From: Mediterranea sp.
Lineage (GTDB): Bacteria > Bacteroidota > Bacteroidia > Bacteroidales > Bacteroidaceae
Length of the DNA stretch: 64,000 bases
Assembly: GCA_031261785.1 (NCBI GenBank)
Contig: JAISIZ010000094.1
Coordinates: forward strand, 1,471-65,470
Direction of reading: 5' to 3'
Shown here piece after piece: positions 5,715 to 8,116 of this stretch. The first letter of the stretch is position 1. Each line of letters starts with the position of its first letter. The position numbers and the translations under genes are program-made. Under the pieces are notes generated by a model. That model did no database searches. It saw only the letters and a program-made list of their open reading frames with translations, and was not told where the DNA came from.

Positions 5715-6839
5715 CTATCTGTTTGCCCTGAACACGATGCGCACGTCGCGCTCGGGAGCCGGAATCACAAGCTCCGCTCCGGAGGGTAGCGAATAGTACT
5801 GCATATTGCCACCCTTGCTCAATTCGTTGACGACGATATCGCCTTTCCTCCTGTTGGAACTGATCTTGCCATACGTAGCGAATTCGAAAACCGGCAATTT
5901 TCTCCCGTTCGCGTCCGTTTTCCCCTCGTTCTCGGGCTTGTACACGATGATGAGGTAGGGATTGGTTTCCAGGGCGACATCGAGGCGCCATACCGTATTG
6001 GGAAGGTTGCGGCTGTCCGTCTTGCCGGTGATCTCGATGCGGTGTTCGCGCATCTCGAAGCGGTTGTTGCCCTCCTGGAGCACGGCCAACACGCCCGATG
6101 TGCGGGAAGGTTGGGGAGATTGGGGAGGCTGGGGAGTGGTACTCCCTTTGGGATTATCCTTAGGTTCTTTCGCCGACGAGCCCGATTGGGGAAGATAAGG
6201 GATGAAGAGCGGGGTGAACGTGCGGGCATCGTCCCACATTCCGATATCGACAAAGTTCTCTTGCGCCATGGCGACTGTTTTTCGGACATTCGTATTCGAC
6301 TCCTCGGTATCGTTCATGTCGTAGGATGGCCGCGACGGGCCGAAGGGCTTCGTCCGGATGATGGGTTTGCCCAGTGTTGGTACCTCCGTGTTCTTCTCGT
6401 CCTTGCAATGTTCGGGCGAGCGGAATTGGAAGTGCCAATACTTGACGGGGATTTTGAGTATCTTGCCGCTTTTCTTCTGTCCCTCGCTCACAAGCCGTGG
6501 CAGCTCCACGCAGAGTTCCATGGCGATGTACGGAAAGGTTTCTCTCAACCGAAGAAAATCCTCGTCGCAAAGGTCGATGAAGACGCACATGGGGAAATAC
6601 ATGATATTCTTCATCTGGTTCTCCGTGCTTATCGTTCGCTCGAAGGCTTGTTCCACCATATATGCTACGCGATGGAAGGGCAGCTCGGCTGGGACGGACT
6701 CCGCGGATTTGCCTGATACGGGGTTGCCTGTCTTCGCCTCTTTTTTTTCACTCTTCGGGTCTTTTGTGCCGCCCTCGAGGATGAGTCGATTCAATCCTTT
6801 ATTGAGCTTCTCGCCCAAATCTTTCCATATATTTGCCAT
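5715..6839 (-). CDS. Kinase-associated protein with FhaA-N/DUF3662-like N-terminus and degenerate FHA-like C-terminal beta domain (374 aa)
   Basis: N-region MYFPMCVFIDLCDEDF...KYWHFQF, Pro/Ser linker, C-region IEITGKTDSR...YLIIVY...FEFATYG...LPSGAELVI. Resembles Bacteroidota FHA proteins (recall) but lacks the canonical GR and SxxH residues; directly downstream of a kinase. Confidence 0.55.
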   Translation of the reverse strand: MANIWKDLGEKLNKGLNRLILEGGTKDPKSEKKEAKTGNPVSGKSAESVPAELPFHRVAYMVEQAFERTISTENQMKNIMYFPMCVFIDLCDEDFLRLRETFPYIAMELCVELPRLVSEGQKKSGKILKIPVKYWHFQFRSPEHCKDEKNTEVPTLGKPIIRTKPFGPSRPSYDMNDTEESNTNVRKTVAMAQENFVDIGMWDDARTFTPLFIPYLPQSGSSAKEPKDNPKGSTTPQPPQSPQPSRTSGVLAVLQEGNNRFEMREHRIEITGKTDSRNLPNTVWRLDVALETNPYLIIVYKPENEGKTDANGRKLPVFEFATYGKISSNRRKGDIVVNELSKGGNMQYYSLPSGAELVIPAPERDVRIVFRANR

Positions 6840-6886
6840 GGCCTCTATTGTTTTTTAATATCCTATTATGATAATAAATTCTTGTC

Positions 6887-8116
6887 CTATCTCCTGTTCA
6901 CCGTCCCCGTTTTTAGCGTCTTCCCGCCCTTTGCCACCGAGGACGAAGGGGGACTCGAGCACATGTTCGCCACGAAGAGCACCGCCGCCGCGAGGAGTAT
7001 GGCGGCGATCACTTCTTTCCACCGGTCACGTAGGATGTCGACGAACGACGGGGGCATCTGGAGCTGTCGCTTCGCCTCGTCGACGATACCGGCGGGAGCG
7101 GATTCCGGTTCTTTTTTCCAATTGTCCCGGGGGATGGTCTCCACGGGAGGCTCGTACTCATCGTCGGGCGCTTCCTCGAGCACTTCGACAACCTCGGCGT
7201 CGGGCACTACCTCGAGCACTTCGACGATCTCTTCGTCGTACTCTTCGTCCCGCCGCTGGATGGTCCGCATGTCATCTTCCTCCTCCTCGTACTCTTCCTC
7301 TTGGGGCGACGCGGAGAGGAGGCGCAGGCATTCGCCCACGTCGCGCGCGCGCTCCTTCGGATCTTCGACCAGGCACCGCAGCACGAGCCTCCGCCACCGT
7401 TCGGGTATCCGGTCGATGTTGACGACAGCTTCCCGCCAGTATTTCGGGATGTTGCCGGTAAAGAGTTCGTAGGCGATGATGCCGAAGTTCCACAGGTCGG
7501 TGTTAGGCTTCACGGGATCGCCAAGGCGTTGCTCGCGCGAGGAGTAGAGTAGGGTGCCCAGTTCGGAGTTTGGGGCTTCGTCGTTGTCGGCGTCGATCTC
7601 CTTGCTGATGCCGAAATCGCCGATCTTGGGTATGTATCGTTCGCCTTGGTGGGAGATGAGGATGTTGGCCGGCTTGAGGTCGCGGTGGATAAGCCCGTGG
7701 CTATGCAGGAAGTCCAGCCCGTCGAGGATACCCAGCAGGATGCTTTCTTTCTCGGCGTCGGACAGGACGCGCCGCCTGGCCAGGTGATAAAGGTCGCCGT
7801 CCTCGTAGTAACGCATCACGATGTAGTCTTTTTCCTTCCCCTCCTCGACGAAGGTGTAGTAATCGATATACGTCACAATGTTGTTGTGCTCGGGCAAGCC
7901 CATCACCGCGGCGATTTCGTTGCGGAGCCTGTACTTCCGGGTAGCTTCCTCGGTAGGTTCCTTGATGGCTACGAGCTTTCCGCGTTGCTTGGTGTCGCGT
8001 GCCTTGTACACTTTGCCGTACCTGCCGCCCCCCAAGAAATCGGCTTCGCCATAGCTATACCGCTCCTTGAACGAGCGATAGGATGTTTTCTCTGATACGT
8101 AGAAATCCGCTTCCAT
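6887..8116 (-). CDS. Membrane-anchored Hanks-type Ser/Thr protein kinase (409 aa)
   Basis: GGGRYGKVY, VAIKE, HRDLKPANIL, DFG, GTLLYSSREQ, DLWNFG; acidic linker; TM segment VIAAILLAAAVLFVANM; ~24-aa tail. Confidence 0.93.
   Translation of the reverse strand: MEADFYVSEKTSYRSFKERYSYGEADFLGGGRYGKVYKARDTKQRGKLVAIKEPTEEATRKYRLRNEIAAVMGLPEHNNIVTYIDYYTFVEEGKEKDYIVMRYYEDGDLYHLARRRVLSDAEKESILLGILDGLDFLHSHGLIHRDLKPANILISHQGERYIPKIGDFGISKEIDADNDEAPNSELGTLLYSSREQRLGDPVKPNTDLWNFGIIAYELFTGNIPKYWREAVVNIDRIPERWRRLVLRCLVEDPKERARDVGECLRLLSASPQEEEYEEEEDDMRTIQRRDEEYDEEIVEVLEVVPDAEVVEVLEEAPDDEYEPPVETIPRDNWKKEPESAPAGIVDEAKRQLQMPPSFVDILRDRWKEVIAAILLAAAVLFVANMCSSPPSSSVAKGGKTLKTGTVNRR
7162..7233. repeat. 36-bp tandem repeat (x2) encoding EIVEVLEVVPDA/EVVEVLEEAPDD in the kinase linker
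   Basis: CGTCGGGCGCTTCCTCGAGCACTTCGACAACCTCGG / CGTCGGGCACTACCTCGAGCACTTCGACGATCTCTT. Confidence 0.85.

Follow-up and report, generated by a model that had tools for sequence, protein, structure and literature searches.

A Hanks-type kinase and an FhaA-like partner in Mediterranea, probable members of a Bacteroidales counterpart of the actinobacterial fhaA cluster

We describe two adjacent genes in a 64,000-nucleotide stretch of a Mediterranea genome (hereafter the window) that encode a tail-anchored Hanks-type Ser/Thr kinase, P0002, and a 374-aa partner, P0001. With a probability of about 0.65, we read them as the kinase and the adaptor of a cluster that is rare in Bacteroidales and corresponds to the actinobacterial fhaA-fhaB-pstP-rodA-pbpA-pknA-pknB cluster. 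Judging by the gene neighborhood of their homologues, the pair likely takes part in phospho-signaling to cell-wall synthesis. In mycobacteria, FhaA is a scaffold that links Ser/Thr kinase signaling to cell-envelope synthesis. A fold and a likely role, that of a Bacteroidales FhaA counterpart, can thus be assigned to a family of ~185 relatives that databases leave nameless. The actinobacterial-style set of kinase, PP2C, FHA and SEDS-PBP genes would accordingly occur in gut-type Bacteroidales as an accessory cluster that is rare and movable, and it would include an adaptor with a diverged phospho-threonine pocket.

The pair lies at a gene-order break

An earlier note on this DNA, made from the sequence alone, had listed a kinase, a 374-aa partner, a kinase stub and AAA-nuclease genes in the same orientation. 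All were found, and all are on the (-) strand. The features are:

2-1087, (-): APH-type gene
1121-2674, (-): AAA-ATPase_like + PDDEXK_9 gene, copy 1, 517 aa; a neighbor, outside the module
3954-5575, (-): AAA-ATPase_like + PDDEXK_9 gene, copy 2, with a conserved leader of ~68 nt
3954-5507, (-): coding part of copy 2, 517 aa
5577-5708, (-): kinase stub of 43 codons, with only the N-terminus and glycine loop of a second Hanks kinase
5715-6839, (-): partner P0001, putative FhaA-like adaptor, 374 aa
6887-8116, (-): Hanks-type Ser/Thr kinase P0002, 409 aa
8117-8307: divergent intergenic region between P0002 and the men-side HAD/thioesterase gene, as read from the sequence
from 8308, (+): men genes (HAD/thioesterase, isochorismate synthase, MenD)

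The same note took these genes to be inserted between core genes. The APH-type and men flanks are indeed present, but this description is oversimplified: they lie 2.1 Mb apart in a complete genome of the same genus and on separate contigs in six other relatives. Since the flanks are far apart in relatives, the site is a gene-order break and not an island between neighboring genes. The GC and GC3 values of the P0001 and P0002 genes are those of the host genome. The divergent intergenic region likely holds the promoter of the pair, as suggested by a TAccTTTa element ~33 nt 5' of the P0002 ATG that comes near the Bacteroidetes -7 consensus TAnnTTTG.

An intact kinase and a partner that probably resembles FhaA

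As read from its translation, P0002 is an intact, tail-anchored Hanks kinase. The kinase domain (aa 26-256, nt 7349-8041) matches Pfam Pkinase (PF00069) with an E-value of 1.1e-42 and 146.7 bits (cut-off 31.7), and the catalytic motifs are all kept (GGGRYG, VAIK with K52, HRDLKPAN, DFG and DLWNFG). It is followed by an acidic linker (~aa 270-345), one transmembrane helix near the C-terminus (aa 369-386, nt 6959-7012) and a tail of ~23 aa. The protein has no sensor domain.

P0001 begins with a helix (aa 2-22), and a putative FhaA_N-like domain comes next (aa ~52-165, nt 6345-6686). A disordered linker rich in P, Q and S (aa 166-247, nt 6099-6344) leads to a C-terminal domain with a divergent FHA fold (aa 248-374, nt 5718-6098). 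An AlphaFold2 model built with alignment A2 (50 sequences) has two confident domains, with pLDDT of ~80-90 for most of both, and linkers below 50; in the P/Q/S-rich one, this holds for most of aa 168-247. The C-terminal domain forms ten strands and reaches pLDDT of ~85-97 over most of aa 250-374. The model obtained from the single sequence (mean pLDDT 39) was unusable.

The C-terminal domain had been suspected of being FHA-like, and the structural comparison bears this out. In a Foldseek search of the PDB with the P0001 model, every one of ranks 1-21 was an FHA domain (probability 0.97-1.0, target TM-score 0.31-0.60), among them those of Mek1, SLMAP, Rad53 (FHA1/2), CEP170, Pml1 and APLF. The one remaining fold among the matches, at rank 22, was 2lc0, the N-terminal domain of M. 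tuberculosis Rv0020c/FhaA (probability 0.89, target TM-score 0.47, E 0.064). For this N-terminal domain, nine of the 50 family members also gave sub-threshold, colinear matches to PF12401 (FhaA_N), with a best E-value of 0.0041; in family member P0010, aa 16-94 align with profile positions 14-91.

Sequence searches gave little. No match to P0001 was found in Pfam, NCBIfam or PADLOC. The FHA model PF00498 left P0001 unmatched at E <= 0.01 and all 50 family members unmatched at E <= 1; run over the genome, it found four other places and missed the P0001 gene, which the Pfam FhaA_N model did not pick up either in a whole-genome search. A profile of the P0001 family had 0 matches among PDB sequences at E <= 10. 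When the C-terminal domain profile was aligned by hhalign with 11 FHA domains from homologous loci, the E-value was 4.7e-4 and the probability 33%, with H295 paired to the FHA His; alignments of A2 to single FHA proteins were too weak and improved only with this 11-sequence alignment.

From the predicted domains and their FHA and 2lc0 fold matches, we conclude that P0001 probably resembles FhaA, the FhaA_N link consisting of the one Foldseek match and the sub-threshold Pfam matches. FhaA is built of a globular N-domain, a disordered linker and a C-terminal FHA fold, and its operon has also been reported (PMC11898655). P0001 shares this order of parts with M. tuberculosis FhaA (Rv0020c). It differs in its linker, ~80 aa against ~300 in FhaA, in an FHA pocket that lacks GR and SxxH, and in matching no Pfam model at threshold. 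The possible likeness of the N-domain to that of FhaA had escaped the earlier reading.

A diverged phospho-threonine pocket

The motifs GKTDSR (272-277) and NPYL (293-296) are present in P0001 as had been described, and in the alignment of 50 sequences the C-terminal domain likewise proved to lack the canonical GR and SxxH, with G-K...R and NPY instead. In a register taken from hhalign and not from structural superposition, G272 is invariant in the family, and the residue after it is K, or R in just two of 50 sequences; an Arg five residues past G272 (R277) is kept in 44 of the 50. The position three before 295 is unconserved, and P0001 has no Ser there. H295 occurs in 45 of 50 members, but P0001 and the rest of its subfamily have Y at this position, with P-Y in place of the family's S294-H295. 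N329 is kept in P0001.

These changes (GR to GK, SxxH to NPY) might mean that P0001 and its subfamily are genuine pseudo-FHA proteins that no longer read phospho-threonine. P0001 would then bind the sensor-less, tail-anchored kinase constitutively as an activating or targeting subunit, possibly with a new role in this genome beside recombinogenic ATPase-nuclease cassettes. We regard this as improbable. If true, the two proteins would form a phospho-independent kinase-scaffold pair, workable without an attached phosphatase. The cytoplasmic domain of the type III secretion protein YscD/EscD (Yop-YscD_cpl, PF16697) is such a phospho-independent FHA fold, a scaffold without the canonical phospho-threonine residues. 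P0001 differs from it in lacking both a secretion-system context and a match to PF16697; the true FHA proteins of the related clusters do match PF16697.

Homologous loci point to cell-wall signaling

The partner family had been called uncharacterized, and so it is: it is matched by no Pfam model, and its members are labeled as hypothetical proteins in the sources. Used alone in a word-indexed homologue search, P0001 retrieved nothing but itself, and its sequence had zero matches in 60 relatives. The A2 family profile, searched against those 60 relatives and 400 other genomes of the order behind a loose pre-filter that could miss weak members, found only this genome. No member was found in 36 genomes of the same genus.

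Among 12 distinct homologous loci, a PP2C gene adjoins the family member, or lies 48-52 codons off, in all 12. A Pkinase gene lies at most two genes 5' of the family member in 10 of the 12, and a fused FtsW/RodA-PBP gene is found in at least eight; FHA proteins are also present. This gene company (Hanks kinase, PP2C, SEDS polymerase and class B PBP, second FHA protein) is shared with the mycobacterial fhaA cluster, from which the Bacteroidales loci also differ. Their SEDS and PBP genes are fused, encoding a single protein of 1400-1640 aa, and the system is rare and accessory, and scattered in this genome, whereas the mycobacterial operon is conserved and core. Of these linkages, the window shows just the one to a kinase; those to PP2C and FtsW-PBP are seen in the homologues.

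A kinase of the P0002 type stands immediately 5' of the partner homologue in three close relatives. P0002 is 61% identical to the kinase 5' of the partner homologue P0006 and 57% to that 5' of the partner homologue in locus L035, and identity to the window pair declines in step for kinase and partner (61/42% in L025, 57/35% in L035, 38/30% in L031). The proposal that the two genes form a conserved unit thus stands for the closest relatives.

The closest homologous clusters also carry LytTR genes, extra FHA proteins and kinase-FGE-sulfatase fusions, which implies a network wider than cell-wall enzymes. The kinase/FHA pair might therefore work as other Bacteroidales kinase-FHA-PP2C modules do and have been re-targeted away from peptidoglycan synthesis, with envelope stress, secretion and transcription control as examples of a new target. 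Its physical separation from the synthase genes and its non-canonical FHA pocket would fit such a change. However, a PP2C gene is found a few genes away wherever the flank suffices, usually with the FtsW-PBP fusion, and the window offers no linked gene as an alternative target. We find re-targeting rather unlikely.

The usual home of the family, a cell-wall cluster of kinase, PP2C, FtsW-PBP and FHA genes, had not been recognized earlier. One 297-aa gene 5' of family member P0009 is not similar to the FHA-like neighbor of the wider family.

The cluster is scattered in this genome

The genes orthologous to the L035 cluster are spread over at least four contigs:

C99: FHA and PP2C genes (62% identity)
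C15: kinase P0002, partner P0001 and the kinase stub
C96: kinase, PP2C, FtsW-PBP (50%) and FHA genes
C92: kinase gene (60%)

The window was said to contain no phosphatase, and indeed no PP2C gene occurs on its whole contig; the genome has two, on C96 and C99. That phosphatases are encoded elsewhere had not been noticed. A 380-aa gene following the paralogous kinase on C96 was considered as a partner homologue and rejected, being itself the PP2C gene.

We propose that P0002, lacking a sensor, is held at the inner membrane face by its C-terminal helix and would phosphorylate itself or a membrane partner on threonine. The FHA-like domain of P0001 would dock there, either on phospho-threonine through a non-canonical pocket or without phosphate, and its N-domain may tether another part of the peptidoglycan machinery, for which the fused FtsW/RodA-PBP synthase of C96 is the most plausible candidate. 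The PP2C phosphatases, encoded on C96 and C99, would act in trans to reset the signal; this mode of action is assumed because the window locus has neither a PP2C nor a synthase gene. The ancestral cluster would have been broken into at least four loci, of which the window keeps the kinase-adaptor piece only, and a third gene, the second kinase, would have been severed at the edge of the multicopy AAA-ATPase/PD-(D/E)XK cassette.

A pair cut off in this way could also be a decaying relic that lost its partners when the cluster broke up and is drifting to loss, its open frames reflecting a recent event. The downstream kinase is cut to 43 codons at the cassette boundary, no PP2C gene adjoins the pair, in contrast to every other locus, and the family is absent from the 36 same-genus genomes and the 400 others of the order. 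P0001 also carries three insertions (aa 45-56, 306-316 and 336-340) found in none of 49 relatives. Against this, both frames are open throughout (409 and 374 codons), the catalytic motifs of P0002 are all intact, and P0001 retains the nine family-invariant residues F66, P83, D94, W135, F137, F139, G157, F318 and F370. The Y295 substitution is common to the whole subfamily and is therefore not private decay, and the remaining genes of the cluster are intact elsewhere in the genome. We consider decay unlikely and favor a working kinase-adaptor pair in cell-wall signaling.

The adjacent nuclease genes are bystanders

The second kinase survives as a stub at 5577-5708 (-), which reads MDNRERQLPPDTTIQSEEFAYTVQETPGQGGFGITHKSTRHIA up to its stop codon and had rightly been called a kinase stub. 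It begins 6 nt past the stop codon of P0001, and its own stop codon lies 2 nt ahead of the repeated upstream sequence of the AAA cassette. This leader, ATCCGCGGAAAAGCCC..., is common to both AAA copies and lies upstream of each. The two copies are 87% identical to each other, and copy 2 matches PF09820 (E 5e-70) and PF08011 (E 5e-15); both window neighbors are full-length members of the DUF1703 family (PF09820 + PF08011). In this genome, tblastn with the AAA-nuclease gene gives 68 HSPs, spread over 53 of the 131 contigs; 23 of the HSPs span at least 450 aa (near-full), many are fragments, and 38 touch a contig end. DUF1703 genes are thus multicopy here and mark rearrangement junctions, and they are not parts of the kinase module: the AAA-ATPase/PD-(D/E)XK cassette truncates the kinase stub and is a bystander.

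These copy numbers bear on the possibility that the locus is an anti-phage module, in which the kinase would sense infection and, with its pseudo-FHA partner, control the adjacent AAA-ATPase/PD-(D/E)XK nucleases. Kinase, partner and AAA genes are co-oriented and adjacent, and P0002 matches the PADLOC models of mad6 (E 9e-52) and PD-T4-6. Related loci offer further hints: an AAA-PDDEXK_9 gene borders the L035 cluster, three loci have BrxL-like ATPase genes 3-5 genes downstream, and one of these three carries a TIR gene as well. However, the PADLOC matches are limited to the generic kinase domain, for which kinases adjacent to FtsW-PBP and PP2C genes score the same or better, and the NCBIfam scores fall far below their cut-offs (95 against 460 bits for Mad6, 40 against 990 for PglW). 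The partner matches no defense model, and no methylase, BREX or other defense-partner gene is adjacent to P0002. With Stk2, PD-T4-6, MADS Mad6 and BREX PglW, P0002 has only the generic Hanks kinase domain in common, and its locus lacks the system-specific domains and partner genes of such kinase-based anti-phage systems. The AAA gene, with its many copies and 38 assembly breaks, truncates a gene of the cluster rather than being co-adapted to it, and is missing from 11 of the 12 homologous loci.

We hold an anti-phage module to be very improbable. The suggestion of a defense role, or of a functional tie to the ATPase-nucleases, is unsupported, with an AAA-PDDEXK_9 gene near just one of 12 homologous loci; the other possibility raised, mere co-location at a hotspot, fits the 23 near-full copies and the fragments on 53 of 131 contigs. 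The nuclease genes thus stand beside the probable cell-wall signaling pair by chance. In such genomes, adjacency to AAA-ATPase/PD-(D/E)XK genes is not evidence of defense, which removes a false lead.

The stub is 50% identical to the N-terminus of the intact 505-aa kinase of C92 (BLASTP, E 2e-13) and 43% identical to kinase-FGE proteins from L035 and L025 (BLASTP), which belong to the kinase-FGE-sulfatase type of the related clusters. The C92 kinase was considered as the missing half of the stub and rejected: it has a complete N-terminus of its own and is therefore a paralogue.

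The kinase-partner pair and its gene neighborhood

The natural company of the Hanks kinase P0002 and its 374-aa partner P0001 is an FhaA/PknB-type cluster and not a set of nucleases or defense genes. As in that type, kinase, PP2C, FHA and SEDS-PBP genes lie together in the relatives' loci. In the window, gene calls and Pfam bear out the set that an earlier note had read from the sequence, namely kinase, 374-aa partner, kinase stub and AAA-nuclease genes:

2-1087, minus strand: APH-type gene
1121-2674, minus strand: AAA-ATPase_like + PDDEXK_9 gene, 517 aa
3954-5507, minus strand: AAA-ATPase_like + PDDEXK_9 gene, 517 aa
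5577-5708: kinase stub, 43-codon frame
5715-6839, minus strand: P0001, 374 aa
6887-8116, minus strand: P0002, Hanks kinase, 409 aa (Pkinase, E 1e-42)
from 8308, opposite (plus) strand: men genes

The two AAA gene products are 87% identical. Between them, at 2910-3580 (minus strand), a signal-peptide-like start (MTKILFLSVVFMCYAQTAFAQ...) meets a stop at ~60 codons, past which coding-looking sequence goes on in a different frame; this may be a frameshifted secreted-protein gene. The 90-aa ORF at 3608-3880 matched no family, and the genome has no paralogue of it.

Around P0010, P0098, P0073, P0121, P0110 and P0119, members of the wider P0001 family, the gene order is constant: fused FtsW/RodA-PBP (~1490 aa), a small gene (missing from one locus), Pkinase, an FHA-like gene (274-392 aa), the family member and PP2C. 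Loci of the close subfamily read as follows, with identities to P0002 or P0001 in brackets:

L025: LytTR, FHA, 324-aa gene, FHA, PP2C, kinase (61%), P0006, PP2C
L035 (a Prevotellaceae MAG): kinase-FGE, LytTR, FHA, 330-aa gene, FHA, PP2C, kinase (57%), partner homologue (35%), PP2C-FtsW-PBP triple fusion (1638 aa), FHA
L031: P0002-type kinase fused to FGE-sulfatase (38%), P0008
L026: end of an FGE-sulfatase gene, P0007, PP2C
L032: P0009, 52-aa gene, PP2C, FtsW-PBP, FHA

The pair proposed in the note is conserved as a unit: kinase and partner identities drop in parallel, from 61/42 (L025) through 57/35 (L035) to 38/30 (L031), as co-inheritance would predict.

Several other features recur in these loci. 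FtsW/RodA and a class B PBP form a single 1400-1500-aa protein on contig C96 of the window's genome (L014:1721-5932) and in L016, L020, L022, L040 and L041, and in L035 (10052-14968) a PP2C domain is also fused ahead of them. A conserved ORF of 48-52 codons separates FhaA-like and PP2C genes (L031:7012-7158, L032:8950-9108, L033:2576-2734). Hanks kinases with a C-terminal FGE-sulfatase-like fusion are found at L035:2452-4191, L025:61-2172 and L031:4302-6026, their kinase domains being of the type of the stub and the C92 kinase in L035 and L025, and of the P0002 type in L031. In three related loci, a BrxL-like ATPase gene (BrxL_N + BrxL_ATPase) lies downstream of the canonical cluster at a distance of 3-5 genes (L022:11916-12966, L041:13336-14817, L042:10766-12367), followed in L042 by RyR-domain and CAP12-PCTIR TIR genes; this recurrence may reflect either a gene order inherited from a common ancestor or a link in function.

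P0001 is predicted to share the layout of FhaA

P0001 has no match in Pfam, NCBIfam or PADLOC, and word-based and genome searches with it alone found nothing. Run exhaustively against 1.8 billion representatives, phmmer returned five ~320-aa proteins (23-42% identity), and a profile built from these retrieved 185 proteins of ~321 aa, none with a Pfam domain and the named ones annotated as hypothetical. An AlphaFold2 model built with a 50-sequence family alignment has two confident domains (aa ~50-165 and 250-374, pLDDT ~80-97 over most of each) joined by low-confidence linkers. Foldseek ranks 1-21 against the PDB were exclusively FHA domains, including Mek1, SLMAP, Rad53 FHA1/FHA2, CEP170, Pml1 and APLF (probability 0.97-1.0, target TM-score 0.31-0.60), and rank 22 was the N-terminal domain of M. 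tuberculosis Rv0020c/FhaA (2lc0; probability 0.89, target TM-score 0.47). Sequence gives independent but weaker support: Pfam FhaA_N gave sub-threshold, colinear matches in 9 of 50 family members, and hhalign aligned the family's C-domain profile to 11 FHA domains from the same loci (E 4.7e-4), pairing position H295 with the FHA His. Together these domains and matches argue for the FhaA layout of an N-terminal globular domain, an unstructured linker and a C-terminal FHA domain (PMC11898655).

The note was right to suspect an FHA fold in the C-domain, and column counts in the alignment agree with its degenerate pocket, P0001 being without the canonical phospho-threonine contacts. G272 is invariant and followed by K (R in just 2/50), with an Arg five residues further on (R277, 44/50). 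The position three residues ahead of 295 is unconserved; S294-H295 is typical of the family (36/50 and 45/50) and is replaced by P-Y in P0001 and its subfamily. N329 is retained. A different pocket geometry might still bind phosphate.

All catalytic motifs of P0002 are present (GGGRYG, VAIK, HRDLKPAN, DFG, DLWNFG). Its kinase domain is followed by an acidic linker, a single C-terminal membrane helix and a ~23-residue tail, which makes it a tail-anchored kinase lacking a sensor domain. From fold and gene neighborhood, we infer a mechanism in which P0002 would mark a membrane partner, the FhaA-like scaffold P0001 would bridge this marked partner to the peptidoglycan machinery, and PP2Cs encoded on other contigs would act in trans.

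A scattered and rare system

The orthologues of the L035 cluster are spread over four contigs of the window's genome:

C99: FHA and PP2C (62% identity)
C15 (the window's contig): kinase, partner, stub
C96: paralogous kinase, PP2C, FtsW-PBP (50%), FHA
C92: kinase (60%)

The window lacks a phosphatase because the cluster, PP2Cs included, is dispersed in this way. The system is rare and accessory, since the FtsW-PBP fusion was found in none of 60 relatives and the P0001 family in only this genome among 401 of the order. Its base composition matches that of the host genome. That genome has 56.9% G+C against 42-43% in two 14-kb stretches (L037, L038) of G002, a complete genome placed in the same genus, an unusually large gap for one genus; orthologous proteins there are just 64-82% identical.

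The stub begins with an ATG six bases past the P0001 stop codon. It shares 50% identity with the N-terminal end of a 505-aa kinase that is intact on C92, and 43% with kinase-FGE-sulfatase proteins from related clusters. Its stop codon lies 2 nt ahead of ATCCGCGGAAAAGCCC..., the leader common to both AAA cassettes; a third gene of the locus, a kinase, was thus severed at the cassette edge.

The nuclease cassettes and the site

The functional tie to nucleases or defense raised in the note is not supported: among 12 distinct homologous loci (196 kb of fetched sequence), the AAA-PDDEXK_9 gene is present in L035 alone, and the PADLOC matches of P0002 (mad6, PD-T4-6) are confined to the generic kinase domain, with kinases beside FtsW-PBP and PP2C scoring equally. 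NCBIfam scores of P0002 fall far under the cut-offs. The note saw the genes as inserted between core genes, but the two flanks are 2.1 Mb apart in a complete same-genus genome, which makes the site a rearrangement junction instead of an island between neighboring core genes.

In the window's genome, tblastn with the AAA-PDDEXK_9 gene gave 68 HSPs on 53 of 131 contigs, 23 of them near full length and 38 ending at a contig edge. Each of its three Hanks-kinase loci has such a cassette, or a fragment of one, nearby: next to it in the window (3954-5575), at ~600 nt on C92 (34836-35276) and at 5.7 kb on C96 (24210-24296, contig end). Cassette-to-cassette recombination may have scattered the cluster. 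In L035, too, an AAA gene lies immediately upstream of the kinase-FGE orthologue.
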